DNA from: a virus
Lineage: Duplodnaviria; Heunggongvirae; Uroviricota; Caudoviricetes
Length of the DNA stretch: 64,000 nucleotides
Strand: one strand, 5' to 3'
Virus record (IMG/VR): IMGVR_UViG_3300045051_000179
Coordinates: 47,051 to 111,050 of that record
Below are positions 2,494-62,649 of this stretch, in pieces. Made by a program: the position numbers and the translations under genes. A model generated the notes under the pieces. That model ran no database searches. It was not told the origin of the DNA and saw only the letters and a list, made by a program, of their open reading frames with translations. How positions within the stretch are numbered: position 1 is the stretch's first letter; every line of letters begins with the position of its first letter.

Positions 2494-3948
2494 ATGAATC
2501 AAGAAGTCAAATTCAAGTATACCTTCCCTATTGCCAAAAGCGAAGCCCGAGAGGACGGCAACTTTCTAATCGGCTACGCCTCTGGACCGGAAGTGGATAG
2601 CGAGAAAGAGCGCATGTCTCCCGAGGCTATTCAGGCTTTCTCTGATCAGATCAATGCCAGTAGTGATGGCCATCGCCTTGTCTATCGTGATGCCCACGCC
2701 CCTGATGGCGTCCTTCGAGACCTAGGAGATATCACCAAGGCTTGGATCAATGAAAAGATGCACCTTGGCATCGAAGTCAAACTCGATATGGAGAATCCTG
2801 CTGCCGCATTCCTGTGGAAGCAAGTCAATAACGGCAAGCAGTACGGTATGTCCGTTGCTGGCCGTGTTTACGATTACATCGATGAGTTCGTTGCTGAGGT
2901 AGGGTCGCAAGTCCGAACTTACAAGGCAATCATTCTTGATGAGATTAGCAATACTACCCGACCGGCTTGGTATCCAAGTTTCGGTTCCGTGCTAGCAAAG
3001 TCCATTAAGGACGCTGAGAGCGCTGTAGCAAGTAGCGGTGAGGTCAGCGAAAAGTCTGCGACCACCGATGAGGGAGAGAACACGTTGACAAACGAGGTAC
3101 TCCTTGACGCACCGGTCAAGGACGAAACAAAGTCTGCTGCTATCACTGACATCAACGACGAACGAGTCGTTAAGTGGAGTAGCGCAGCAAGTGATGCTAG
3201 CGGTGCAGCCTATGTGCTGTCCAGCGTCCTTGCCATTCTTGGTGACGAAACCAGCGAGGCTGATACAGGCGATGCCGACAAGTTGAAGGCAGCCGTCGCA
3301 GCCATTCTCTCATTCATTGAGTCAGAAACGGCTGAAATCGGTACCGTAGGGGATGTTTCCATGAGCGATACCACAACCGAGGAAAACGAAATTGAAAAGT
3401 CCGATGACGAGGCTGCTGCCTCCGAGGCGACAGATGAGGCTTCGGCTGAGTCTGCCACCGAGGAAACAGTCTCCGAGGAAGTCGTGACTGATGACGACGC
3501 TGAGAAGTCCGACAAGGACGACGAGGCTGACGTTGAAAAGGCTGGCAAGAAGATCAGTGCTGCTAACGCAGCCAAACTGATGGCCATGTTTGCCGAGATT
3601 CAGACGACACTCCAAGATGTTGGCGTGATCGAGGCTGATACTACAACCGACAAGAGTTCCGATAATGCGGCTTCCACAGACGCAGAAGTGACCATCGAAA
3701 AGACGGACGAGTCAGAGACAGTTGACGAACTGACAACTCAGAAGTCTGCCGATGAACTGGCTGCTGAACTAGCGAAGGCACGCGCAAGGATCGAGGAACT
3801 AGAGAATTCTCCGACAACAGTTCTTCCGGGTCTCGTCACTGACGCGACAAAGAAGACTGCTGAGAGTGATTTCGAGGAACTTCTAAAGAAGGCTTCTCCT
3901 TCCGAGAGACTTCGCTACTCATTGGCTGCCCACACGGGTGGTCGTTAA
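2494..3948 (+). CDS. Prohead protease (HK97 S78-like) fused to an acidic coiled-coil scaffold domain.
   Basis: The N-terminus (EDGNFLIGYASGPEVDSEKERMSPEAIQAF ... YRDAHAPDG ... GMSVAG) resembles the HK97 prohead protease His/Ser region. The C-terminal half is very acidic and contains ELAAELAKARARIEELE. The start was chosen at the ATG just after the portal stop. The 2389 start in the ORF track would overlap the portal gene. Confidence 0.6.
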   Translation: MNQEVKFKYTFPIAKSEAREDGNFLIGYASGPEVDSEKERMSPEAIQAFSDQINASSDGHRLVYRDAHAPDGVLRDLGDITKAWINEKMHLGIEVKLDMENPAAAFLWKQVNNGKQYGMSVAGRVYDYIDEFVAEVGSQVRTYKAIILDEISNTTRPAWYPSFGSVLAKSIKDAESAVASSGEVSEKSATTDEGENTLTNEVLLDAPVKDETKSAAITDINDERVVKWSSAASDASGAAYVLSSVLAILGDETSEADTGDADKLKAAVAAILSFIESETAEIGTVGDVSMSDTTTEENEIEKSDDEAAASEATDEASAESATEETVSEEVVTDDDAEKSDKDDEADVEKAGKKISAANAAKLMAMFAEIQTTLQDVGVIEADTTTDKSSDNAASTDAEVTIEKTDESETVDELTTQKSADELAAELAKARARIEELENSPTTVLPGLVTDATKKTAESDFEELLKKASPSERLRYSLAAHTGGR

Positions 3949-3969
3949 TCAACCAAAAGGAATCCGTAA

Positions 3970-4854
3970 ATGGATCAGATTACAGTACGTAAGGCGTTGG
4001 ACCTTGCATCTTCGGGCTCTTACCTAATCCCAGAGATTGTAGACAACGCAATCCGCGACTATGCTACGTCGGAGCCAGTTCTGGCTAACGTAGTCACTCG
4101 CGTGCCTTGGGCTACGAACACCTACTTCATCCGTAGGCGTGACGCCCTCCCGACTGCCTCTTGGGCTGTTGACGGTGGTAACCTGCCGAACGCATCTCAG
4201 AGCACGTACAAGAAGGTCAGTCAGTCGATTGCCTACCTGTACACGGTCGGTTCGGTCACTGGACCGATGCAGGAAGCCGCTGGCTCCCTGTACAACGCTC
4301 TTGCTCTTGAGGTCGAGGCCCACAGCCGCGCCCTGATCGAGCAGTTGTCAACTGACATCGCTACGGCTGATGGCCAGTCCGACGACATCATCGGTATGTT
4401 GTACCAGATCGACACCGATGACAAGATGAACTGGGGCTCCACGGGCTCTGGTGAGGTTGACGCCGCTGGTGCGTATCTAACCCTTGAACTGATCGACACA
4501 GCAATCGACACCGCTCGCGGTGAGGTTGACCTGATCGTCACTTCTCGAAAGGTACGTCGAGCGATCAACGGTCTGCTACAGGCTCAGCAGCAGTTCGTGG
4601 ACAGGACTGAGGTAGCCGCTGGCTTCCGCGTTCTGACCTACGATGGTATCCCCATCGTGACCGACCTGCACTGGGAGACTGACGAGGATATCCTCTTTGT
4701 CCGTCGAGCAGACGCGAAGTTGCTTGTTCACAAGGACTTCACCTACGAGGACTTGGCTCACACCAAGGACGCATCGGACTTTATGATCAAGGGTTACTTT
4801 GGATTCAGCCTTGAGGGGCGTCCTGTACACCTTGATAATTTCGTCCTTCCGTAA
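3970..4854 (+). CDS. Major capsid protein (HK97 fold).
   Basis: A 294-aa protein directly after the protease-scaffold gene. Its composition and position are typical of an HK97-family major capsid protein, and it has a strong GGA-rich ribosome-binding site. Confidence 0.75.
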   Translation: MDQITVRKALDLASSGSYLIPEIVDNAIRDYATSEPVLANVVTRVPWATNTYFIRRRDALPTASWAVDGGNLPNASQSTYKKVSQSIAYLYTVGSVTGPMQEAAGSLYNALALEVEAHSRALIEQLSTDIATADGQSDDIIGMLYQIDTDDKMNWGSTGSGEVDAAGAYLTLELIDTAIDTARGEVDLIVTSRKVRRAINGLLQAQQQFVDRTEVAAGFRVLTYDGIPIVTDLHWETDEDILFVRRADAKLLVHKDFTYEDLAHTKDASDFMIKGYFGFSLEGRPVHLDNFVLP

Positions 4855-4919
4855 GGATTAACGTGGTGAGGAGGGATCGTTAACGCGGTCCCTCCGACCC
4901 GCTAAAGGAGAGCCATCTG

Positions 4920-5438
4920 ATGGCAGTTCGACTGAAGCACCTAACCAAGCATCACGCCCTACAGAAGCACTACTTCTATGAGGGTCACGCAGTCGCGGTT
5001 AATGGGGTCATCGAGATTCCTGCTAATCGTCCTGCTTGGGCACAGCGTATCTACAAGTTAGGTTATATGCTGGACCCCGAGACAGATCGTCGTCTTTCAT
5101 TGGGCGAAGTTCTAGGTCTCTTTAGTGCCAAGAGCACACCCACGCCGGTAGAGGAAACTCCCGCAGTGACGCCAGAGGCGACTCCGGAAGCAACTCCTGT
5201 ATTGGACGAGAACGCCAAGAGCGAGGAAAACACCGATGAGACTAACACCACAGCAGACACGACTACAGATGTCGTGGCAGAACCAGTCGCGCCAGATGCA
5301 ACTTCAGTGGATGTTGAGCAGCCAAGCGCAGCAATCCCAGTTGATGCTGACGCAGAAGTATCTGCCAATAACGACGTACAGCCGGAGTCTCCTGAATCTC
5401 CTGTCACAACTGACAGCGCCGAGGGTCTCCTACCGTAA
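4920..5438 (+). CDS. Head-associated hypothetical protein with a Thr/Pro/Glu-rich low-complexity tail.
   Basis: About 70 residues of globular N-terminus are followed by TPTPVEETPAVTPEATPEATP and a long acidic tail. It lies between the capsid gene and the glycosyltransferase. Confidence 0.5.
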   Translation: MAVRLKHLTKHHALQKHYFYEGHAVAVNGVIEIPANRPAWAQRIYKLGYMLDPETDRRLSLGEVLGLFSAKSTPTPVEETPAVTPEATPEATPVLDENAKSEENTDETNTTADTTTDVVAEPVAPDATSVDVEQPSAAIPVDADAEVSANNDVQPESPESPVTTDSAEGLLP

Positions 5439-5447
5439 GGGCACGTC

Positions 5448-6725
5448 ATGCGCGTCCTCGTAATTGGTGATAGTCCACTAATCAAGACCGGGTTCGGGCG
5501 CGTGAATCACCACGCCGCTGAAGCCTTCCTCCGTCAAGGATGGGAAGTGGCCGCTGTCACTGGTCTGCAATACGAGGAACGAGAGTCTGATCTTGCGATC
5601 CAGCAGTTCGTTCCACTCTCCACCGATGTCAGTGGTTTGTTCAAGGTTATTGAAGTAATTGAGAACAAACTCTTTGAGCCGGATGTCATCTACCTGACGG
5701 CTGATGCGGGCTCAGTTTCGGCCATGGCCTCGGTGATCCCTGCCCGTATCCCAGTTTTTGCGTATGTTCCGATTGAGGGCGAGCCTCTCGCGAGCGCGAA
5801 TTGGAGGGCCATTCTATCCAACATCAACTTCATGACTTGTTCAAAGTACGGTGTCGATGTAGTAGCCCGTGACATGCGCCAGAATATTCCCTACGTCTAC
5901 CACGGAGTGGACTTGAACACATTCACTCCTTTGTCAGAATCAGAGCGTGACGAATATCGTAGGCGCTTGGGGTGGCAAGGAAAGTTCGTTGTTATCTCTG
6001 TCGCGCAGAATGTCCGACGCAAGCAACTGACAAGGCTCATTGAGGCCACATCGATCCTCAAGCATCACTATAAGCAGAAGGACATTCTGACCTATCTGCA
6101 TACTGTCCCCTTCCAGAACTACTGGTTAGAGGGGTGGAACCTACCTGAAGTCTCCGCTGCCTACGATACACATGAGGAAGTTGTCTTCAATCCCCTCATG
6201 AGCGGATTCGGAAAAGCGGTCCCTGAGCGCGGCAATCTTGACGTTCCGGGTATTCGTGAACTTCTGTCGGCTGCGGACCTGTTCGTTCTTCCTTCACAGG
6301 TTGAGGGATTTGGCCTGCCGATAGCGGAAGCCATGGCCTGTGGGACGCCTGTTATGGTTACTAAATACGGTGCCGGATGGGAAGTTGCTCGCCTTGGTGG
6401 AGGCGCACCAATCGAGGTAGCCGATTATGAAACCCATAAGTCCGGTACGCGCTACGCCAACGTCAGCCCGAAGGCATTAGCCGATACCATCCTAGCACTT
6501 AAACGTGATCCGAAGCGCTTAGCCCGGATGCGAGCACAGGGCCTTGAGGCAGTGAAGCAATTCAGTTGGCCCGCATTCGAGGAGACCGTCGTTGGCAAGA
6601 TTGAGGAGACACTCACCCGGTCAGAGACAAGGCGTCGGGAGCAGGAACAGGCTGATTCAGGGCGGGAGGAAGCCGGGTCGTCGTCCGGGTTACTTCGAGA
6701 AACTACGCCTGTTGCTAGCACTTGA
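5448..6725 (+). CDS. GT-B fold glycosyltransferase, family GT4-like.
   Basis: Contains the EGFGLPIAEAMACGTPVMVT motif (E-x7-E region) and an N-terminal Rossmann beta strand, MRVLVIGDS. Confidence 0.8.
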   Translation: MRVLVIGDSPLIKTGFGRVNHHAAEAFLRQGWEVAAVTGLQYEERESDLAIQQFVPLSTDVSGLFKVIEVIENKLFEPDVIYLTADAGSVSAMASVIPARIPVFAYVPIEGEPLASANWRAILSNINFMTCSKYGVDVVARDMRQNIPYVYHGVDLNTFTPLSESERDEYRRRLGWQGKFVVISVAQNVRRKQLTRLIEATSILKHHYKQKDILTYLHTVPFQNYWLEGWNLPEVSAAYDTHEEVVFNPLMSGFGKAVPERGNLDVPGIRELLSAADLFVLPSQVEGFGLPIAEAMACGTPVMVTKYGAGWEVARLGGGAPIEVADYETHKSGTRYANVSPKALADTILALKRDPKRLARMRAQGLEAVKQFSWPAFEETVVGKIEETLTRSETRRREQEQADSGREEAGSSSGLLRETTPVAST

Positions 6726-6851
6726 ACGTCAAAACCTACCGCTTATCTCCAAGTCTCGTCTCTTGGCTGCATCCCGCAGGAATGATCTGCGTCAAAAGTC
6801 TGCTTTCCGCCGCAAGCGTCGAAAGCGTAGCGCTCTGCTGAGAGGTTCGTA

Positions 6852-7406
6852 ATGGCCTTAATTACCTCGGATTACTTCAATACACAGATGGCCACACTCG
6901 GACTCAAGGCTAAGTTCACGCCCGAAGCAGAGGCTCTTGATGTCCTCATTCAGGAGGCATCCGACTGGGTGGAGGGCTATTGTGATCGAGTGTTTGCCAG
7001 CACCGAGTACGTGGAGGCCATACACTATCCATGGCGCTCTCGGACCCCTACAGCAGTTCTAGAGAATTGGCCCGTCACCGAGGTTACTGATATCTCTTGG
7101 GAAGATCAGAATGGCATGACCGGTGACTATGATCCAGATACCGTATGGATTGACCCAGCAGGAACGCTGACATGGAAGAATCCTACCTTCAATTCTTGGT
7201 TCGGGACACTTCGCTACACGATCACCTACAAGGCTGGCTACGAGACAATTCCTTCGAACGTCCAGCGTGCCACCGCCCTTAAGGTTGCCAACCTCATGCA
7301 GCCTCAGTACCAAGGCGTTCAGGAAAGAGAGGTCTTCATGGTTTCTAATCTAGAGGCCATGATTGTTGATCTGCTCGAACCATTCCGTCGAGAGCGATTT
7401 GGTTAA
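6852..7406 (+). CDS. Head-tail connector (gp6-like adaptor).
   Basis: The N-terminus MALITSDYF ... ALDVLIQEASDWVEGYCDRVF is typical of gp6-like connector proteins, and the gene sits after the head genes. Confidence 0.55.
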   Translation: MALITSDYFNTQMATLGLKAKFTPEAEALDVLIQEASDWVEGYCDRVFASTEYVEAIHYPWRSRTPTAVLENWPVTEVTDISWEDQNGMTGDYDPDTVWIDPAGTLTWKNPTFNSWFGTLRYTITYKAGYETIPSNVQRATALKVANLMQPQYQGVQEREVFMVSNLEAMIVDLLEPFRRERFG

Positions 7407-7940
7407 ATGTATGCCATCCAGATCACGACACTGGGTTTTCCGGAGGCCATCCGGAAACTAGAGAAGGTTCTTGATATCGTCGAGAACCAGCGAGATGACA
7501 TCGCTACTGCCGCCCTACATGGAGCGGCTACGGTCTTTGTCAGGAACTTCCAGACCGAAGGTAGAACGTCCGGTCATCCGTGGCCAAAATTGGCAGCCTC
7601 CACACAGTCTGAGCGTGAAATCCTCGGCTTTGATCCTGAGCATCCGATCTTGATCCGATACGGTGGACTTGAGTATGCGACATCGACCTACTTGGTGACT
7701 GCGCCAAAGACGGCTAGGCTCTACAGCGTAGACACACAGGGCAAGGCAATCGGTATTGATATCTCTGCTTCCTCGGATACCGTGACCGTCGTGGCCTACG
7801 GAGAGAAGGCAGCCAACCAAGTTGGCGGTGGTCCGACCGATGTGCCCGAGAGAATGTACTGGTTCACGACGAATCAGGTTATGCTGAAGGCACACGATGC
7901 TGCTGTGGACTGGCTCGCAGATGCCATTAAGAGGGTCTAA
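7407..7940 (+). CDS. Head-tail joining or head-closure protein (hypothetical).
   Basis: Assigned by position between the connector and tail genes. It is translationally abutted to both neighbours. Confidence 0.4.
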   Translation: MYAIQITTLGFPEAIRKLEKVLDIVENQRDDIATAALHGAATVFVRNFQTEGRTSGHPWPKLAASTQSEREILGFDPEHPILIRYGGLEYATSTYLVTAPKTARLYSVDTQGKAIGIDISASSDTVTVVAYGEKAANQVGGGPTDVPERMYWFTTNQVMLKAHDAAVDWLADAIKRV

Positions 7941-43028: not shown

Positions 43029-43308
43029 TACGTTCCTGTAGGGGCAACTTATTGACTGCCTGCTCGGCGTCGAGTAAATCTAGATGATAGTCGTTTCCGA
43101 TGACTGATGAATACGATGTTGACATATCGTCTGCATCAGCCGCTCGGGCTGGTCCTGCCGTGATGATACTCCCACCGGGATTCTCAAGAGCAGCGCGGAT
43201 ACCATGGCGTTCGATTAAGAGTTTCTTGATATATTCGTTGAGCCTGTATAAACCCTGCGAATCGTAACTCTCTCTTACGCCTTCATAGGCGCTAGGATTA
43301 CTGGCCAA
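42865..43308 (-). CDS. Sigma-70 region-4-like helix-turn-helix protein (small sigma or anti-sigma-like regulator).
   Basis: LPLQERIETLAWCDGLSPKQAAQWANITSHTVRS is a region-4 HTH signature. Confidence 0.5.
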   Translation of the reverse strand: MASNPSAYEGVRESYDSQGLYRLNEYIKKLLIERHGIRAALENPGGSIITAGPARAADADDMSTSYSSVIGNDYHLDLLDAEQAVNKLPLQERIETLAWCDGLSPKQAAQWANITSHTVRSTTTAAARKRMQRTITKIANGVADDAA

Positions 43309-44336
43309 TATGAATCTCCACTGACTCGGATTAGACTGGCACGTCCATCCGAGTATTCCACAGTGACGGTTGTTCCATCGACTGTCGAAAGGGCCTTGAT
43401 CAGTAGCGAGGCATCGACAAGAATCTTACCCTTGCCGGTGACATTCGCTTCAATTTCAACTCTCCCTGATTGTGCGCCACTGATGCTAAGGGTTTTCTCC
43501 GTGGCGTTGAGAGTAACCTTGTTGAACTCTGTTCTACCCTTCAGCGATTTGAAGGATTCGATAAGCGTCTTACGGTTGGCTGATATTGAGACATTATGCT
43601 CGAATTTGGGTAATGATGGCAGTTTGCCATAGCCCGGTCGAAGCACGGAAACGACTCGATATCTGCCTGATCCTATTTGTACTTGTGGAGATTGCGTATC
43701 ATTTCGAATTGGGAAGTAGAATCCACCAGCATCCTCAAGGCCCTTAAGGGCCGAGAATAGTGTTGACGGGAAGTGAGCATCAAAGACTTCCGAAGCGGGC
43801 AATGGCCCTACCTCGACGCCCATATGATTGTCGTTGGCTCGCAGCCAGAATGAATCCTTGACGACTGATCCATACACCTGATCATGCGGGCTAAAATCGC
43901 CTACTGCAAGATCAAGATATTTCGATGCGGCAGGGAGAAAGCCTGCATCAAACTTCACTACGGGTCCGTCACCGAATGGCTTGGGCCGGAGCAACATAGG
44001 AGTCTCATGGCCAATGTTGTCCATCGTCACGCTGCTACCAAAGGCTGTCTTTAATTGTGCCCCATCTTTGTCGATTGTGAAGAAGACCTCGCCCTTCCCC
44101 TTGAGGGCCTTCAGGGTCGTCAGGAATAATCGAGATGACACGATAGCGGTACCATCTTGGTCAGTAGGTCCAACGGTGGCCATGATCGTCTTCTCGTGGT
44201 CCCCAGCAATGAGTTTCAGGACGCCATTGTGCGCCTGAATGATGACCCTATCTGTTGGCCTATCCGCCTTCTCTCGGACAGACGCAAACCTACCTATCGT
44301 CTCTCCGATTTCCCGTAGTTCTATGAAGGTTGTCAT
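43275..44336 (-). CDS. dnaN: DNA polymerase III beta sliding clamp homologue.
   Basis: A 353-aa protein with three-domain length. LKLIAGDHEKTIMATV ... SSRLFLTTLKAL ... VFF resembles the clamp N-terminal pattern. The C-terminus reads ILAPMKA. Confidence 0.6.
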   Translation of the reverse strand: MTTFIELREIGETIGRFASVREKADRPTDRVIIQAHNGVLKLIAGDHEKTIMATVGPTDQDGTAIVSSRLFLTTLKALKGKGEVFFTIDKDGAQLKTAFGSSVTMDNIGHETPMLLRPKPFGDGPVVKFDAGFLPAASKYLDLAVGDFSPHDQVYGSVVKDSFWLRANDNHMGVEVGPLPASEVFDAHFPSTLFSALKGLEDAGGFYFPIRNDTQSPQVQIGSGRYRVVSVLRPGYGKLPSLPKFEHNVSISANRKTLIESFKSLKGRTEFNKVTLNATEKTLSISGAQSGRVEIEANVTGKGKILVDASLLIKALSTVDGTTVTVEYSDGRASLIRVSGDSYWPVILAPMKA

Positions 44337-44815
44337 TCGCCCTTCTTCAGTGCCTCATCTGCGGACTTACGATAGACTTCAAACCACTCACCAGTGTCAC
44401 CTGTTCCTGTCTGTGGTCGGTACTGCTTGATGATGCGAGCAGGGTCTTCATATCCCTGTGACTTCATTATAGCATACATCATGGCAGGGGATCGATTGAT
44501 TCCGTGGCCACAATGCACCAGTAATTTCCCTTTGCTTGGGACTGTCTTCGAGAAAGCAATGCCTCGGGCGAACCAAGAGGCTGGCTTTGGCTTACCATCG
44601 TCAAGCGTCTCAGGGAGACCAGATAGATCAAGATGCACGAATGCATCCTTGATTTCCTGTGGCTCAGGCTTATCCGGCCAGTTGACGTTGAGGATATGGG
44701 TAATACCCTCTTTCTTGAGGGCAGGGATATCGGTTATGGCTAGCGTGCCGCCAATATATAGATCGCCAGTGATCCTTGAAATGCTCAACTTGATACCTTC
44801 AACGAATCTATCCAT
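44333..44815 (-). CDS. Dual-specificity / protein tyrosine phosphatase.
   Basis: LLVHCGHGINRSPAMMYAIM contains the HCxxGxxRS P-loop, and ITHILNV matches the family. Confidence 0.8.
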   Translation of the reverse strand: MDRFVEGIKLSISRITGDLYIGGTLAITDIPALKKEGITHILNVNWPDKPEPQEIKDAFVHLDLSGLPETLDDGKPKPASWFARGIAFSKTVPSKGKLLVHCGHGINRSPAMMYAIMKSQGYEDPARIIKQYRPQTGTGDTGEWFEVYRKSADEALKKGE

Positions 44816-45237
44816 TCTTCATAGGTCTGCTTAACAATACAGCGGACAGTTCTGTTCTTCATGCCGTATGAGTATACCACATCCATATGGTCCTCGTCAA
44901 CATGCTCGAAAGCGCGACACGAGACAGCCGTCTCGACAACCCATTTATGCTCATGGGGCTTAGAATGGTTCCATCCGTGAGCAAATTGATAGTCTACGCC
45001 TAAGTTATGGAAGTATGGATCAGTATCGCAGTATGTCCAACTCTTTACCTGCAATCCAACTGGAAGAATTACTGCATCGTCAGGCGCGTTATGGCATAAG
45101 GTCAGGAATGCCTCAGCCCTGCCGGGATGCGTTGCATCTTCTGAGTCCACGGGTGTCTTCCATCTATAGGCAAACGTACCAGCACGGTAGTCTTTGTAGT
45201 CAAGTCTGAAGTCGAACGGCTTGGATTCTTCCGGCAC
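44785..45237 (-). CDS. Hypothetical protein.
   Basis: A 150-aa ORF. Confidence 0.4.
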   Translation of the reverse strand: MPEESKPFDFRLDYKDYRAGTFAYRWKTPVDSEDATHPGRAEAFLTLCHNAPDDAVILPVGLQVKSWTYCDTDPYFHNLGVDYQFAHGWNHSKPHEHKWVVETAVSCRAFEHVDEDHMDVVYSYGMKNRTVRCIVKQTYEEWIDSLKVSS

Positions 45238-45538
45238 TTAAGTCTGCTATCCTTTCGAATGCATCGGCATAGAGGTCGATACTGCGGGTTGCACTACAGT
45301 TACAATCAATGATACGTACCCTGACTTGTCTATCGTGATATCGAACGATGATATATCGTCCACGCAGATAAGATAGGTCGGGCGAAATGGCCGCATAAAG
45401 GCCGTGTGAATATCCTCTAGCGCACGCCGAAAGCGGGCCGCGAGACGAGTCATGATTGCAGTACCATGTCGCACTAACTGAGATGCCCGTACCAGATATG
45501 GTTGCCCTTGGTGACGGGACAGATGTTGGCTGCGGCAT
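45200..45538 (-). CDS. RlpA-like double-psi beta-barrel (DPBB) domain protein (lytic-transglycosylase- or expansin-like).
   Basis: SATWYCNHDS ... SHGLYAAISPD ... YIIVRYHDRQVRVRIIDCNCSATRSIDLYADAFERIA resembles the RlpA/3D pattern. The start is uncertain. Confidence 0.5.
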   Translation of the reverse strand: MPQPTSVPSPRATISGTGISVSATWYCNHDSSRGPLSACARGYSHGLYAAISPDLSYLRGRYIIVRYHDRQVRVRIIDCNCSATRSIDLYADAFERIADLSAGRIQAVRLQT

Positions 45539-45686
45539 ACTGTCCCTGATGGCAAGCAACGCAAGTGTCTGATCGGGACGAATCGCCACCGGCAAGAATG
45601 CCACGTCGGGGACCGGCGAAGATGAGGGGGAATGCGCGGTTGAGACGCTCGACCACATCAGCAGGAAGACGGATGCGCATAGTAGA

Positions 45687-46094
45687 CTACCTCGCCCTCG
45701 GTAGGTTAATGTTCGCGCTCGGCGCAGAATCAAACTTACCAAGGAACTTGATAGCATTGATATTCTGTTCGACAGCATCGAGAAGATGCGTGATCTTCTT
45801 AGCCTTCGTACGTGCATTGATTTCCTCCTGCTGTTCATCTTGCGTTTCCAGCATGGCGTAATTGTTTGCAGCGGCGTCTGACAAAGGCTTGTCGGATCGC
45901 ATCTCTTTAGCCCGCTTAAAGGCTTCTGCTTGTGCATACTTTCGCTTCATCTCTGCCTCCTCAGCAAGAGATTGTGCATCCGCAGCAAGGTTGCCGAGGA
46001 TAGCGAAAGATGTCACTAGATCGTCTAGATGTTGTGCCGTTGGATTGCTCTTAAGCAACTCCATTGTGTGCGTTAGGAATTCATCCCTGTTCAA
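45687..46094 (-). CDS. Hypothetical coiled-coil protein.
   Basis: A 135-aa ORF. Confidence 0.4.
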   Translation of the reverse strand: MNRDEFLTHTMELLKSNPTAQHLDDLVTSFAILGNLAADAQSLAEEAEMKRKYAQAEAFKRAKEMRSDKPLSDAAANNYAMLETQDEQQEEINARTKAKKITHLLDAVEQNINAIKFLGKFDSAPSANINLPRAR

Positions 46095-50086: not shown

Positions 50087-51019
50087 CTACTTGGCGATCA
50101 ACGCATTCGGGTCGAGAATGAAACTCTGGCCCGATGGGAGAACGATGGTCTGGATGGTAGGAGCCAACTTCTGAATCAGTGTGTACTGAATCAGTTCAGG
50201 CGTGAGCGACTGCTGTAGCAAATCGTTGGCCTTGGCCTGAGCCTCGGCGGCGATGAGAACGGCATCAGCATTACCCTGAGCCGTGGTACGAATCTGGTCT
50301 GCCTGAATCTTCTTCTGGTTGAGAACCTGCTGCTCGGTGAGAACCTGCTGCTCTGCAACCTGCTTGGCCTCAATAGCCTGCTTGTACTGCTCAGAGAAAT
50401 CAATGTTCGAAATGGCCACGTCATCAACGACGATACCATAATCATCCAACTTGTCAGCCAACTTCTGAACTGCTTCCTTACGGATGTCTTCTCGGTGGGC
50501 AAGAACCTCACCGACGCCATACTTCGGGACAACTTCCTTGATGAGGTTGGCGAAGAACGGCCTGACAATCTTGTCAGCGTAATCGAGACCGACATTCTGG
50601 TAGAGGCGCACGACATTCTGCTGGTCGATATGAACGTTCAGGGTACCGGACATGATAACGTCCTGATATTCCCTTGATGCGGCAGCCAACTTATCGAAGT
50701 TGATACCCTGCACGCGAGTGTCAACGTCGGTGACGTTGTTCACGAAAGGCGGCAGGAAATTCAGACCCGGCTTGAGGGTCTCGGTCTGGACCTTACCGAA
50801 GGACGTAACGACGCCAACGTGGCCAGCCTCAATGGAATGCACGAACATTGTGGCGATCAGGAACCCGACGCCGAAGAATGCCAGCACGGCAGTCCCAGCA
50901 ATGGCGCTCGGACTTGCCCCCTTACCTGTTACGTCGCTCTTGGTCGTCGCCACAAACAAGAACAGAGCAATACCACCAATAGCAGCCAGCAGGCCCAAGC
51001 CTGTCAACAGAATCTCCAA
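50087..51019 (-). CDS. SPFH/band-7 (stomatin/prohibitin-like) membrane protein.
   Basis: An N-terminal transmembrane region is followed by a band-7 core (GHVGVVTSFGKVQTETLKPGLNF ...) and a Gln/Ala-rich coiled-coil tail. The start codon is TTG. Confidence 0.75.
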   Translation of the reverse strand: MEILLTGLGLLAAIGGIALFLFVATTKSDVTGKGASPSAIAGTAVLAFFGVGFLIATMFVHSIEAGHVGVVTSFGKVQTETLKPGLNFLPPFVNNVTDVDTRVQGINFDKLAAASREYQDVIMSGTLNVHIDQQNVVRLYQNVGLDYADKIVRPFFANLIKEVVPKYGVGEVLAHREDIRKEAVQKLADKLDDYGIVVDDVAISNIDFSEQYKQAIEAKQVAEQQVLTEQQVLNQKKIQADQIRTTAQGNADAVLIAAEAQAKANDLLQQSLTPELIQYTLIQKLAPTIQTIVLPSGQSFILDPNALIAK

Positions 51020-55068: not shown

Positions 55069-55256
55069 GATTGTCCTCGTTTCTTTCTAGGCTTGATCAC
55101 GAGAGGCTGAGCCTCATCAGGGGTGTATGATTTGTGGCATGTATCGCAATCGATCTTATACCCACCATCATTCCACATACAATCGCTATCCCATGATGTC
55201 CAAATGATGGCCCCACCACAAGGACAAGACTTTGGATAGCGCTTATTGAAGTACAT
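55065..55256 (-). CDS. Zinc-finger mini-protein.
   Basis: Contains CPCGG ... CDTCH. Confidence 0.4.
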   Translation of the reverse strand: MYFNKRYPKSCPCGGAIIWTSWDSDCMWNDGGYKIDCDTCHKSYTPDEAQPLVIKPRKKRGQS

Positions 55257-58840: not shown

Positions 58841-59049
58841 TTTGTCACCTTATATTGACTGTCAGGAAGACACGAGATAGAAGCATGACCATCTGTTCCG
58901 ACGTAGAACCAACAGCCAACCTCTCTATCGGCATCATGAACGTACTTGACGGCACTACCAATGTTTTGTCCGACATTCTCGCCCGGAGCAGTAGCGCCAG
59001 CGCAGCCAGCAAGAACAATTGTCACGGCCAGCAAAAGAATCTTCCTCAT
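58837..59049 (-). CDS. Lipoprotein (paralogue B).
   Basis: A signal peptide with the lipobox LAGC, followed by CWFYVGTDGHASISC. Confidence 0.55.
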   Translation of the reverse strand: MRKILLLAVTIVLAGCAGATAPGENVGQNIGSAVKYVHDADREVGCWFYVGTDGHASISCLPDSQYKVTK

Positions 59050-59246
59050 CAGGCAGTCTCAATCTTTACATCAGGACTAGTCCCGAGAACAGAATTAACA
59101 GCCTCAATAGCCCTTCGCTTCACGTTGGTGCGGAAGGTAGCCATTGGAGACTTGTCATAGACACTCTTAGTTACTCGAACAGAACGAGAGATAACAGTCC
59201 CGTCTGCCCTCGTGTATGAAACTGAAACTGTTGCTTCAACGGCCAT
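59049..59246 (-). CDS. Hypothetical protein.
   Basis: A 65-aa ORF. Confidence 0.35.
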   Translation of the reverse strand: MAVEATVSVSYTRADGTVISRSVRVTKSVYDKSPMATFRTNVKRRAIEAVNSVLGTSPDVKIETA

Positions 59247-59265: not shown

Positions 59266-59757
59266 CTACATTATACCATGCGAGAGACGTTGAGTCAAGG
59301 TAGATGGTTCATTCGCCCCGCCTAGCAGGACATTAGGTTCTGGTACATCCCATACACCTTCGTGATAGATGTAAACAGGGATGCCCTTCTTCTCTGCGCA
59401 CTTCACCGCATCTGATGTGCCCGGTGTCCTTGGGCCAGCCGCGAATATTGCCACAAGGGCATCGGACTCATCGATCATCCTTTGATTGCGTTGATGGCCA
59501 GCACCTCGTCCTGCAATATTCCAGAATGCCTCGAAGGTCTTGACGGTCTCATCAGGAAGGTCAATGAAGTCTGTTTGCGCTGCCCAAACGAATTTCACAT
59601 TGGCATCAACTCCTGACGGAGCATCGCCAACATTGATGGTATGACCATTCCGTATAAGGCTCTTGACGACTCGATCAATGAACCAGATATCTGTCCAGCC
59701 ATTCATCCTGCCACGAACAGGATCAGGGCCTCGACTACCACTAATGGCGACTCTCAT
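59266..59757 (-). CDS. SLOG-superfamily protein (DUF2493-like).
   Basis: MRVAISGSRG ... VGDAPSGVDA ... AGRGAGHQRNQRM ... GTSDAVKCAEKKGIPV matches the DUF2493 pattern. Confidence 0.65.
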   Translation of the reverse strand: MRVAISGSRGPDPVRGRMNGWTDIWFIDRVVKSLIRNGHTINVGDAPSGVDANVKFVWAAQTDFIDLPDETVKTFEAFWNIAGRGAGHQRNQRMIDESDALVAIFAAGPRTPGTSDAVKCAEKKGIPVYIYHEGVWDVPEPNVLLGGANEPSTLTQRLSHGIM

Positions 59758-60275
59758 TCCCTAGACCTTAACCACTTCTCAAATGTTTCGTTGCATAGAA
59801 CTGCCGGTGACCGCTTCTCACGGAGCATGGCAATTGCCTCATCAGCACTTTGTCCCATGTACATCAAGGCACGCGCCACGACAAGAGAACTTCGATTGAG
59901 CCCTGCCTGACAGTGGACGAGAACCTTCTGGCCCTTCGCAAGGAGGCCGACAACAAACAGCGCAGCATCTTCCACGGACCCACCATCAACTTCGGTCGAG
60001 TCATACATGGTAACCTGAACGGTGTCACCCTTGGTAGGATATTTCTCCCAAGGATAAAGTGACACGATGGTATCGAAGCGATCACCAAGATCGAGGTTAT
60101 CCACGTACCCGCCGTGCCAAAGATTACCTGTGACATGGGTAATAATGGGCATGCTGAATGGCGTATTGCCCATATGCGCAATGCCATCTATCCAGTGAGT
60201 GAATGGGTCCGCACCGTCAGGCGCAACCCAACCATAGGTCTTCTCAACTGTATTGGCCCCGGTATCTCCGCTCAT
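59754..60275 (-). CDS. Dual-specificity / protein tyrosine phosphatase (second copy).
   Basis: VLVHCQAGLNRSSLVVARALM contains the HCxxGxxRS P-loop. Confidence 0.8.
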   Translation of the reverse strand: MSGDTGANTVEKTYGWVAPDGADPFTHWIDGIAHMGNTPFSMPIITHVTGNLWHGGYVDNLDLGDRFDTIVSLYPWEKYPTKGDTVQVTMYDSTEVDGGSVEDAALFVVGLLAKGQKVLVHCQAGLNRSSLVVARALMYMGQSADEAIAMLREKRSPAVLCNETFEKWLRSRE

Positions 60276-60763
60276 GCCCTCTCCATCACTGTGAACCTGT
60301 CATCAAGGATAGGATCAAGCACAGGCTTGACATCCTCCCATCGCAGGCCCCCGTTTCCGCATCCGGGCCTGCACATGATGACTCGATAATCTGGCTTACC
60401 GTCAATCTCAGTTCGCATTTCCCATGCCGACCGTTCAATCAACTCAATCTCGGCTTTCGCCTGCCATCCCATCTCGCCATTAGGTCCATACTGCGGCTTA
60501 ACAGGGAACGTATAGAGCGAGAAGTTATATGGGCTATCTCGATTGAAGTTAGGCTCGATGTCAAACCTGAAAACGTGATTGCCCTTGGTGCGAAGGGCCG
60601 TACCAAGATTACCGGCTAGCCAAGGATAGCGGTTTCTTGCCTCTAGAGCAATGCCCCTACCCATGACTGCCTCTCCGTTGGATTTGTAGAATCCATTAGT
60701 CGTGATGACCACGCCATCGAACTCATCGATGTAGTCCCAGATATTTCCGAAGCGCTCGATCAT
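60272..60763 (-). CDS. Macro domain protein (Macro_2/phage-type; ADP-ribose processing).
   Basis: GNIWDYIDEFDGVVITTNG ... AVMGRGIALEA ... IMCRPGCGNGGLRWEDV matches the Macro_2 pattern. Confidence 0.65.
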   Translation of the reverse strand: MIERFGNIWDYIDEFDGVVITTNGFYKSNGEAVMGRGIALEARNRYPWLAGNLGTALRTKGNHVFRFDIEPNFNRDSPYNFSLYTFPVKPQYGPNGEMGWQAKAEIELIERSAWEMRTEIDGKPDYRVIMCRPGCGNGGLRWEDVKPVLDPILDDRFTVMERA

Positions 60764-61179
60764 GCTCTCTTTTCCTCATCAATGATGTATCTCATCCATG
60801 CACGGTCGGGCTCTATGTCTGGATACCTTGCAACAGCAAGGTCATATTCGGGCTTTGGGGCTACTACCTCCAAGCCTGCCCCATCATAGAAGACAACCTC
60901 GGCCTCAGGCGCGTCTTCTAGTTTCTGTGGCCACTCTGCGTCCCATTCCCAACCGTAATCAGTCCATGACTTGAAGGAAACTGGATGCCTGCTCTCATAT
61001 TCGTATTCAAATCCAAGCAGCGCAGCGATTTCTTCTAGTGCATCTTCAAGTCCTGTGCTGAGACCAAGAGAACCAGCGAACGGATCATTAGGACCGAAGT
61101 CCCACGCAAGTTCTCCGTTCACATAGAACGCACCCAGACCACTATCAGGGTCACGCACTACGACAAGTTTGTTAGTCAT
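60760..61179 (-). CDS. Hypothetical acidic protein; first gene of the Macro-DSP-SLOG operon.
   Basis: A 139-aa ORF whose stop codon overlaps the Macro gene start. Confidence 0.4.
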   Translation of the reverse strand: MTNKLVVVRDPDSGLGAFYVNGELAWDFGPNDPFAGSLGLSTGLEDALEEIAALLGFEYEYESRHPVSFKSWTDYGWEWDAEWPQKLEDAPEAEVVFYDGAGLEVVAPKPEYDLAVARYPDIEPDRAWMRYIIDEEKRA

Positions 61180-61320
61180 GTCTCAATCCTTTTAAGTCGT
61201 TGTAATTCCTGCATTGTTTCCTTCCTGAAGGCGAGGGTCTCCTGCGGTATTCGCCAATGACTTGGCTCTCCCCATCGGTTGTCGGGGTGAAGTATACGAT
61301 CTACCTCTGGTCGCTTAATA

Positions 61321-61590
61321 CTAGCCACTGTTAACGTAGCAATGAATGATTATTTCACCAGTAGCACCGAAGGCAGCAGTACCGACATATCGACCAGCGG
61401 GAACATCCTCACCAGTGAAGGCAAGGGTAATGACTCGCTGAATAGGCTCAGAAGACTGATCAGCCTCGGCCCAAATCGTAGGCGTACCGCTCTGGTTGGC
61501 GAACTTGATAGGACGCCACGTGGTAGGCAGTTCTACAACCTGCGTATAGGTCTGATCCAACGGGTACTTTAGGATGCGACGGTCAGCCAT
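61321..61590 (-). CDS. Hypothetical protein.
   Basis: An 89-aa ORF overlapping the 3' end of the integrase gene. Confidence 0.4.
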   Translation of the reverse strand: MADRRILKYPLDQTYTQVVELPTTWRPIKFANQSGTPTIWAEADQSSEPIQRVITLAFTGEDVPAGRYVGTAAFGATGEIIIHCYVNSG

Positions 61591-62477
61591 TCCGGTTCTT
61601 CCTCCTGCGTGTTTGCGTCTACTTTTGCGTCTTTTACGAGACGAATACCATTGCCTAGATTGCGAGGGTCAAGCCCACTAGCCGCGACCAAATCACCGAT
61701 GTCCATAGTCACGTACTGCTGGGTCGTACTAACGCTGGCATGACCAAGCAATTTCTGGACTGCGAAGACATTAGCCCCTGCCCTGATAAGTCGAGTTGCA
61801 TAGTGATGACGCAGGGAGTGAGGATGAATATTCACCTTCGCCTTGCGTGCCGCCATGTCAACGATCCCGTTTACGGTATCAAACGACAGACGGCCACCAT
61901 CAGGATTGTGGACAAGATAGTCGGACTCAGCGCCATTGTCCTTGTCAAATGCCTGCAAGGCATCAATCGTCTCCGGCAGGACAGGAACTATGCGCTGCTT
62001 GTTGCCCTTACCGGTTACTACCATGTAGTAGCCGTACTCTTTGGTCCACTTCATTGCGTCGGCGCGAAGATCAGAGACTTCGGATGCACGAAGGCCATTG
62101 AGCAGGAGCGAGACAACGGCTGCTTCTCTGGAAGTTTTGGTCGCAGCGATCAGGGCCTCGACATCCTCATCGGACGGTACCTCAGGGACATTTCCTGACG
62201 GGCGCTTTGGTGCCTTGACTGCCTCAAAGGGTGAATACTCGATCATCTTTCGGGTCGCCAGCCACCTATAAAACGTGCGGACAGTATTGAATCTCCGTGC
62301 CGCACCATTAGCCTTATAGGTCTTGGTCAACCATGCCTTGTATTCAGCAGCACCCTCGACCGTGAGAGGAAGGCCCTGCTCAAACCAAAGGCGCAAGTCA
62401 TTCCCATACGCACGCACAGTTTCAGGACTGTTCTGCGTATTCAAGAATGCTTGCGCCTCAGTAGCAAATGTGGTCAT
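61569..62477 (-). CDS. int: Tyrosine recombinase/integrase (XerC/D-like).
   Basis: ARG ... HPHSLRHHYATRLIRAGANVFAVQKLLGHASVSTTQQY contains the R-HxxR-Y catalytic signature. The start was chosen at MTTFATEAQAF, which gives the family's typical length. The ORF track extends it upstream to 62615. Confidence 0.85.
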   Translation of the reverse strand: MTTFATEAQAFLNTQNSPETVRAYGNDLRLWFEQGLPLTVEGAAEYKAWLTKTYKANGAARRFNTVRTFYRWLATRKMIEYSPFEAVKAPKRPSGNVPEVPSDEDVEALIAATKTSREAAVVSLLLNGLRASEVSDLRADAMKWTKEYGYYMVVTGKGNKQRIVPVLPETIDALQAFDKDNGAESDYLVHNPDGGRLSFDTVNGIVDMAARKAKVNIHPHSLRHHYATRLIRAGANVFAVQKLLGHASVSTTQQYVTMDIGDLVAASGLDPRNLGNGIRLVKDAKVDANTQEEEPEWLTVAS

Positions 62478-62649
62478 CGAGTACCCTTTGCTTGACCTCA
62501 TAGATAAGTTCTCTGGCTGCCTCTGGATGGCGGCGCACAAACCAATAGGCTCGTGCTGTAGACCTTCGGTCCTCGTACCACTTGGGTGCGAGATGCCTAA
62601 GGTTTCTCCACTCAAAGAGAAGATCGTTGAGGATGTCTTGCTCGTTCAT
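62458..62649 (-). CDS. Hypothetical small protein upstream of the integrase gene.
   Basis: A 63-aa ORF rich in Arg and Trp. Confidence 0.35.
   Translation of the reverse strand: MNEQDILNDLLFEWRNLRHLAPKWYEDRRSTARAYWFVRRHPEAARELIYEVKQRVLDDHICY

Follow-up and report, generated by a model that had tools for sequence, protein, structure and literature searches.

We analysed a 64,000-nucleotide (nt) stretch of a tailed-phage genome (positions 47,051 to 111,050 of IMG/VR record IMGVR_UViG_3300045051_000179; hereafter, the window), in which four consecutive minus-strand genes at 59,266–61,179 encode, from 5′ to 3′, an acidic protein (P1), a macrodomain protein (P2), a dual-specificity phosphatase (DSP; P3) and a SLOG-fold protein (P4). 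We cautiously favour reading this locus as a slot of variable content, whose counter-defence genes act independently and are directed at immunity based on nicotinamide adenine dinucleotide (NAD+) and ADP-ribose (ADPR), rather than as a dedicated multi-subunit system. According to this model, a long and tightly packed early leftward transcription unit would start at or before an integrase gene and end at the SLOG gene, and a slot 3′ of the conserved integrase–DUF7352 pair would gain and lose small genes, each acting alone against host NAD+/ADPR immunity.

Gene content of the slot in related phages

Relatives of each gene were taken from metagenomes and IMG/VR, and their neighbourhoods were scanned with family hidden Markov models. 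Three related loci (L004, L008 and L011) share a collinear backbone with 70–80% nucleotide identity and differ only in the slot between the DUF7352 gene and the PDDEXK nuclease gene (~5000–5600 in each). This slot holds the SLOG gene only in L004, DSP and SLOG genes in L008, and the DSP gene only in L011, which is direct evidence that the slot genes are gained and lost independently. The closest relative, L003 (108 kb), has the order Int–DUF7352–74–78–70–Macro (71%)–76–79–66–SLOG (69%)–65aa; it carries no DSP gene, its Macro and SLOG genes are three small open reading frames (ORFs) apart, and a P1 homologue follows after another 3.4 kb, next to an IMPDH-like gene. Taken with its relatives, the locus gives a natural series of SLOG only, DSP only, DSP plus SLOG, Macro plus SLOG, and all three, and this presence/absence series suggests that the genes work independently. 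The SLOG gene is the most constant occupant of the slot among the relatives. The conserved left anchor is the integrase, which is 83% identical in L003 and 51–53% identical in L004 and L008. The integrase–DUF7352 pair is kept in L003, L004, L008 and L011, with DUF7352 always immediately after the integrase.

The earlier note on this DNA had held that its proposal would fail if homologues of the four genes were never co-located in other genomes. Among ~175 related loci, no genome besides the window and an identical fragment (L001) carried all four together; in this survey, the full set was thus unique to this phage, which counts against it as a unit, although pairs recur. These pairs occur only in L003, L008, L018, L031, L056, L074, L106, L117 and a few others. 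Among 80 macro-anchored IMG/VR loci, a SLOG gene was found within 5 kb in three and a DSP gene in two (one contig counted twice). Among 78 DSP-anchored loci, a SLOG-like gene lay within 5 kb in nine (~7 lineages, including Mycobacterium phages MrMagoo, Aziz and Rey and Gordonia phage Yvonnetastic), a NAMPT-like (Namat) gene lay within 5 kb in six, and a macro gene was nearby in three, directly 5′ of the DSP gene in L106. None of these 80 macro-anchored and 78 DSP-anchored loci contained the three enzyme families together, and P1 was present in none.

Linkage of Macro and SLOG was seen in the window, L003, L018, L031, L056 and the Klebsiella N4-like phage Pylas, in which a YAcAr SLOG gene (gp08) lies 2.4 kb from a P2-family ‘Poa1p-like’ macro gene (gp18). 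The Pylas SLOG protein (L182, 259–618; 119 aa) is annotated ‘GTP binding - deoxyribosyltransferase’, and both its gene and the macro gene (3001–3504) fall within the first 5.5 kb of early genes. Among cultured phages, the matches of P2 (enterobacterial, Vibrio, Aeromonas and some Firmicute-infecting phages) and those of P3 (actinophages) share no record. An apparent DSP–SLOG adjacency in Gordonia phages PhinkBoden and WilliamBoone, suggested by similar coordinates, proved coincidental. In MrMagoo (L180, 1978–7325), the actinophage DSP/SLOG pair sits in an RNA-repair-like context, with the order tRNA array – RtcB ligase – small ORF – DSP … DprA-like SLOG – small ORF – phosphoesterase. The phage under study is only distantly related to cultured phages (portal identity ~28%), and a megablast search of the locus against cultured phages gave no match.

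Extent of the coupled block

Structural genes occupy the plus strand over about 1–30 kb of the window, and the minus strand over about 30–64 kb carries many small genes of the early and replication classes in a long array, among them those for DnaB, a PDDEXK nuclease and a clamp-like protein. The earlier note had placed the four genes in the early arm of a phage, and their position agrees with this. It had also located their junctions correctly: P1/P2, P2/P3 and P3/P4 are each joined by an ATGA overlap of 4 nt. Its proposal that such translational coupling implies stoichiometric partners did not hold up, as the 4-nt overlap is the commonest junction type in this phage. Two sets of gene calls were compared, namely those of the source contig (Logan contig SRR24010766, a 110,922-bp metagenomic phage contig containing the window) and a crude gene model of our own for the minus-strand arm. 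Overlaps of 4 nt accounted for 28 of 79 junctions (35%) on the minus-strand arm in the crude model and for 20 of 56 junctions in the source contig’s own calls, and further runs of three such overlaps were found at 55256→53960 and 53004→52128. Because ATGA overlaps are the default of this genome, an overlap alone is uninformative about stoichiometric partnership.

The coupled run also extends 5′ of P1. A possible but uncertain 50-aa ORF with a GTG start (61176..61328, minus strand), absent from the source contig’s gene calls, overlaps P1 by 4 nt; the DUF7352 gene (61321..61590, minus strand; Pfam DUF7352, 1.3e-14) overlaps this ORF by 8 nt, and the integrase gene overlaps the DUF7352 gene by 22 nt. 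The integrase, a tyrosine recombinase (61569..62615, minus strand; Pfam Phage_integrase, 1.3e-29), is encoded by the first gene of the block, and its start is ambiguous, giving 348 aa from the longest ORF (TTG) versus 302 aa by the source contig’s gene caller. A scan for promoter consensus found no promoter-like site directly 5′ of P1. The only promoter-like candidate for the start of the coupled block is a sigma-70-like consensus match 5′ of the integrase (TTGACA-17-TATACT, with TG; 62687–62659, minus strand). A second site known from consensus matching only, with a near-consensus extended −10 (TTGACT-17-TATAAT, with TG; 59298–59270, minus strand), lies within the SLOG gene, at its 3′ end, and marks the downstream boundary of the block. 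It is followed by an AAGGAGG ribosome-binding site and an ATG, and precedes the gene for a basic 65-aa protein (59049..59246, minus strand; isoelectric point (pI) 10), a 74% identical copy of which is encoded immediately 3′ of the SLOG gene in L003. A terminator scan gave no excess of sites over shuffled sequence. Since the overlaps extend upstream and the promoter-like sites are confined to the region 5′ of the integrase and to the end of the SLOG gene, the coupled block runs from the integrase to the SLOG gene and is not the self-contained four-gene operon that had been proposed. We also observed that the tyrosine recombinase, always paired with DUF7352, lies amid the early genes of a 111-kb phage.

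Predicted activities of the slot products

The earlier note had assigned the products to families of ADPR/NAD+ conflict, and for three of the four this assignment was borne out. P2 (60272..60763, minus strand) is a macro-only protein of 163 aa from the DarG2/TARG1 clade and contains the motif GCGNGGLRWEDV to which the note had drawn attention. Its label as Macro_2-type is not supported: P2 has no Pfam match at E ≤ 0.1, Macro_2 (PF14519) matched none of 29 relatives, and the classical Macro profile PF01661 matched 10 of the 29 family members. The DarG models of NCBIfam (1.6e-10) and PADLOC (1.8e-10) both matched P2, the NCBIfam score being below the full-length cut-off with the macro part alone matching (positions 22–137 of 338); the C-terminal DarT-binding domain of DarG was not found in the 163 aa of P2. 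When the P2 family profile was compared with the PDB, DarG ranked first (5m3i, 7e-13; 5m31, 8e-11), followed by TARG1 (7e-8). P2 also matched PHROG 335, ‘phosphatase’ (2.6e-20). In hhalign, P2 aligned with AdfM of the PhiKZ type (probability 98.3), placing ITTN(23) and FPVK(89) opposite AdfM N23 and K78, which have been named as its catalytic residues (PMC13309987), and N23 and K89 are invariant in all 29 P2 family members.

As a control, we used River4 gp177, a macro protein embedded in Adps-X-Namat (the Adpp position) and a syntenic proxy for the Adpp of Vibrio phage Gary. Its matches to TARG1 (2e-9) and SCO6735 were much better than that to DarG (0.08), and Ala stands at the position of the P2 Lys. 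By its sequence, P2 appears DarG2/AdfM-like and unlike this Adpp-position macro protein. P2 is a predicted ADP-ribosyl hydrolase, most probably one that de-ADP-ribosylates DNA as AdfM does, the alternative being an Adpp-like role on soluble ADPR-1″-phosphate (ADPR-1″P). Given the likeness to DarG and the conserved Asn/Lys pair, the idea that P2 removes DarT marks seems reasonable, and AdfM provides an experimental precedent for it (PMC13309987).

P3 (59754..60275, minus strand; 173 aa) has the predicted intact active site of a DSPc cysteine phosphatase. The HCxxGxxRS P-loop reported in the earlier note is present as VHCQAGLNRS, and the Pfam DSPc profile (PF00782) matched at 3.1e-14, with 53.4 bits against a cut-off of 33.5. 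P3 further matched PHROG 10650 (2.5e-43), and its relatives in the PDB are PRL and VH1-type DSPs. Across 60 homologues, D92, C122, R128 and the P-loop HCQAGLNRS are invariant, and many P3 homologues carry the Pfam annotation PTP-NADK. P3 is thereby predicted to be a catalytically intact phosphatase. A second, divergent DSPc gene was noted at 44333–44815 (minus strand; 160 aa; Pfam DSPc, 2.8e-10), and overlaps the neighbouring DNA polymerase III beta (sliding clamp)-like gene (43275–44336, minus strand) at the latter’s start; the phage thus carries two cysteine phosphatases.

P4 (59266..59757, minus strand; 163 aa), the product of the gene that closes the coupled block, is a divergent SLOG protein, probably of the YAcAr (DUF2493) family. 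The earlier label of SLOG/DUF2493 stands for the SLOG part, by predicted fold, and DUF2493 went undetected in P4 itself and was seen in 8 of 24 relatives. In Pfam, P4 had only a marginal match to the cpYpsA SLOG family (E = 0.098), and YAcAr (PF10686) matched those eight relatives, which include proteins 47–49% identical to P4, with a best value of 1.6e-8. PHROG 289 matched P4 at 1.8e-14. The AF2 model of P4 (predicted local distance difference test (pLDDT), 88) had as top Foldseek matches in the PDB the ThsA SLOG domain with 3′cADPR (7uxs, 7e-5), DprA (4ljk, 2e-4), ShosA, LOG and MCP. The conserved motifs are ISGSR, GDAxSGVD, AGxxRN and PGT, and the invariant residues are S8, R9, D51, R90, N91 and T114. 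P4 thus shows the traits of the SLOG superfamily, namely a three-layer Rossmannoid fold, a Gly-rich loop after strand 1 and a pocket of conserved polar residues, and probably falls within the YAcAr family. We infer that P4 is a ligand-binding or ligand-processing SLOG protein, for which a role with an ADPR-derived signal is suggested by the likeness of its predicted fold to the 3′cADPR-bound SLOG domain of ThsA.

P1 (60760..61179, minus strand; 139 aa) belongs to a rare orphan family, with 20 matches among 1.8e9 representatives. It is indeed acidic, as the earlier note had said (pI 4.1; 30 D+E versus 11 K+R). Its family shares a conserved N-terminal domain of ~95 aa with the motifs DPDSG..Y.DG, ESR and YWP..LEDAP, and the predicted model is confident (pLDDT 87.7). 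Searches with P1 returned no Pfam, PHROG, PADLOC, DarG-model or PDB match and no fold match to its model. We therefore rejected two candidates, namely that P1 is the missing DarT-binding half of DarG or that it is a DNA mimic. Matches of P1 to giant proteins were to cadherin/Big_9 adhesin repeats and were treated as motif noise. The relatives of P1 adjoin a Fic protein (L020), a secreted protein (L021) and the IMPDH-like gene (L003), showing no conserved partner. In L020 (228–1057), a P1-family protein gene (47% identity) overlaps the end of the Fic-domain gene by 4 nt, a single observation on a short contig.

Several other genes around the early arm are recorded here. A cREC_REC (PF20274) protein is encoded just beyond the right end of the window (~63896–64207), a few kb 5′ of the integrase, and another is encoded likewise in L003 (1–279); cREC_REC is said to have been predicted by Aravind’s group to process cyclic ADPR or 2′,3′-cyclic phosphates. 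The early genes also include one for a Band_7/SPFH-domain protein (50087–51019, minus strand) and one for a protein with a DPBB_1 (RlpA-like) match below the Pfam cut-off (26.4 versus 28.8 bits; 45200–45937, minus strand).

Weighing the readings against each other and against known systems

The model of independently acting counter-defence genes would assign each enzyme its own task. P2 would strip ADPR, in the manner of AdfM, from thymidine in phage single-stranded DNA (ssDNA) modified by a DarT2-type toxin, and hydrolysis of a soluble ADPR ester, e.g., ADPR-1″P, may be its activity instead or as well. P4 would bind, and possibly cleave, an ADPR-derived immune signal, as the SLOG domain of ThsA binds 3′cADPR, and P3 would dephosphorylate a nucleotide- or ADPR-type metabolite or a phosphoprotein generated during defence. 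Any cooperation would be loose, in that the enzymes may clean different bonds of ADPR derivatives, and they would not be obligate partners.

By contrast, the earlier note had envisaged one dedicated operon whose products, made in a fixed ratio, work together, as a complex or in an obligate pathway, to reverse ADP-ribosylation or eliminate NAD-derived signals. In keeping with this, the genes are contiguous with ATGA overlaps, fusions of SLOG, Macro and cysteine-phosphatase-superfamily domains exist in other viruses (PMC9503650), Macro→DSP neighbours occur one further time independently (L106), and DSP→SLOG neighbours are found again in L008 and L117. However, the same overlaps join 35% of all junctions here, each gene is found without the others in collinear relatives, the full set recurs in none of the ~175 related loci, and the neighbours of the P1 family elsewhere are unrelated. 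An obligate four-protein system is very improbable, having already been largely refuted by the neighbourhood survey.

A different proposal is suggested by the Namat–Adps pair of NARP1, beside which homologues of two slot genes were found. A P2 homologue (55% identity) lies directly 5′ of this pair in L015/16 (5001–7814), and a P3 homologue lies directly 3′ of an orthologous pair (80% and 58% identity) in L012/13 (2679–6163), followed by a methyltransferase gene, a homologue of which (48% identity) follows the macro gene in L018 (5001–6001). In large relatives, the order [Macro]–Namat–Adps–[DSP]–methyltransferase is filled variably. Metabolite salvage would then make P2 an Adpp-like ADPR-1″P phosphatase and P3 a second phosphatase, for another phosphorylated ADPR (e.g., 2′-phospho-ADPR), with the two converting unusual products of NAD+ degradation to ADPR for NAD+ reconstitution of the NARP1-AP type and thereby countering RES-type NADases. 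The Namat genes within 5 kb of six of the 78 DSP loci, though NAMPT-like genes occur in only ~4% of phage records, speak for this proposal, as do the macro protein Adpp of 15% of NARP1 operons and the PTP-NADK annotation of many P3 homologues. Against it, neither Namat nor Adps was found in the 64-kb window or the 10 kb beyond it (74 kb inspected), the window’s sample was not among the 80 best Namat loci, a DSP gene was present in only 1 of the 80 Namat-anchored loci, and P2 is DarG-like by sequence and differs from the NARP1-embedded macro protein. On this evidence, we regard salvage as unlikely. A related observation concerns the IMPDH/GMP-reductase-like gene (PF00478; 56309–57388, minus strand), which is conserved in relatives at 51–73% and lies in other phages beside a DSP gene (L014), beside a P1 homologue (L003) or upstream of Namat–Adps–DSP (L012).

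The genes could also be unrelated neighbours in a mosaic early region, with SLOG as a DprA-like ssDNA-binding recombination helper, DSP acting on host or phage proteins or on RNA 5′ ends, and the macro protein clearing by-products of tRNA repair. The conserved association is integrase–DUF7352–…–SLOG followed by PDDEXK, exonuclease and DnaB genes, and the second DSPc gene of this phage lies beside the clamp-like gene. The P4 motif GDAxSGVD, which we take to resemble the GxAxGxD of DprA, would fit the same picture. On the other hand, the P4 family is probably YAcAr and not DprA, its best structural match is a cADPR-binding SLOG domain, RtcB and tRNA genes were not found in the window, and linkage among Macro, SLOG, DSP and Namat recurs across unrelated phage families. 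We consider functionally unrelated neighbours a minority possibility.

Some observations, part of which favour these alternatives, weigh against independently acting counter-defence genes. The pairwise associations are infrequent (4–12% of loci), and with many of the loci mutually related, their enrichment is only roughly estimated. The mycobacteriophage DSP homologue of MrMagoo follows RtcB and a tRNA array, pointing to RNA repair rather than ADPR. Actinophage SLOG relatives are annotated as DprA-like ssDNA-binding proteins and DprA is the second-best structural match of P4, so that P4 may serve recombination beside the integrase and nuclease genes. The 55%-identical relative of P2 occupies the place of Adpp in NARP1-AP operons, making the substrate of P2 ambiguous. 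Finally, the model assigns P1 no role.

Each of these families is known, and the Macro–SLOG–phosphatase theme has been predicted before. What is new here is a classical DSPc protein in the phosphatase role, a presence/absence series of cassettes at one slot, and the repeated occurrence of DSP beside Namat–Adps. It was not until 2026 that phage macro enzymes were demonstrated to overcome DarTG2 (AdfM) and RES-type NADases (Adpp), and viral SLOG proteins and phage DSPs are common proteins without demonstrated function. The recurrence of DSP and the P2-type macro protein beside Namat–Adps is a lead to a second kind of NARP1-associated phosphatase; if this lead fails, the locus comprises ordinary early-region accessory genes. 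A bolder and rather doubtful extension is a facultative three-enzyme ADPR clean-up cassette assembled piecemeal. In this cassette, DSP would be a new, non-macro accessory enzyme of the NAD+/ADPR arms race that takes the phosphate off an ADPR derivative made in defence (ADPR-2′-phosphate, ADPR-1″P or a signal carrying a phosphate), the YAcAr SLOG protein, as a phage protein of a new class, would bind or hydrolyse Thoeris-type signals, and the DarG-like macro protein would complete the set.

Among known systems, AdfM is a phage macro anti-DarT factor that removes DarT2 marks from DNA and whose counter-defence activity was shown experimentally (PMC13309987). Like AdfM of chimalliviruses and the macrodomain of DarG2, P2 is a single phage macro domain of ~160 aa with its best profile matches to DarG macrodomains, and the residues N22/K80 of Thermus aquaticus DarG and N23/K78 of AdfM are conserved in it as N23/K89. 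Unlike AdfM, P2 has a 6-residue insertion after the Asn and no phage nucleus context, and it is 27% identical to AdfM of the PhiKZ type; unlike DarG, it is without the DarT-binding C-terminal domain. Adpp, the macro protein found in NARP1 operons, converts ADPR-1″P to ADPR and defeats aRES (bioRxiv 10.64898/2026.01.28.702374). RyDEP, a glycosidase of ADPR signals, is likewise inserted in a NARP1 locus. Like Adpp, P2 is phage-encoded and a macro protein of the TARG1/Poa1p-like clade with a relative beside Namat–Adps, but in the window its gene is not beside Adps or Namat, and its profile ranks DarG first, whereas that of River4 gp177 ranks TARG1.

P3 resembles the actinobacteriophage ‘PTPc tyrosine / dual specificity phosphatase’ (PHROG 10650), with 40–49% identity over ~150 aa and the same P-loop. 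The hosts of those phages are Mycobacterium, Gordonia and Rhodococcus, however, and in their genomes the gene either follows RtcB/tRNA arrays or is surrounded by replication genes. P4 has a predicted fold in common with the SLOG sensor domain of ThsA (type I Thoeris) and with DprA, but at 15–20% identity and a TM-score of ~0.5–0.6; P4 is a standalone protein with an insertion after strand 1, and has neither the SIR2 effector of ThsA nor any of the extra domains of DprA.

A precedent for the locus as a whole is the network described computationally by Iyer and colleagues in 2022, in which Macro, SLOG, NADAR and Nudix domains co-occur in DNA viruses through gene neighbourhoods and fusions, associated with a domain of the rhodanese-phosphatase superfamily (DUF4326); this viral Macro/SLOG network was predicted to degrade host signals derived from ADPR (PMC9503650). 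The earlier note had not recognised the arrangement as a described system. This is only partly right: Macro/SLOG/NADAR neighbourhoods and rhodanese-phosphatase fusions had already been described for DNA viruses (PMC9503650). Here, as in that network, a standalone early Macro gene is linked to a SLOG gene of the YpsA-like clade, with a metal-independent domain of a cysteine-phosphatase superfamily attached. The phosphatase, in contrast, is a classical DSPc protein and not DUF4326, the genes are adjacent rather than fused, an orphan acidic protein is added, and the linkage is facultative in the relatives of this phage.

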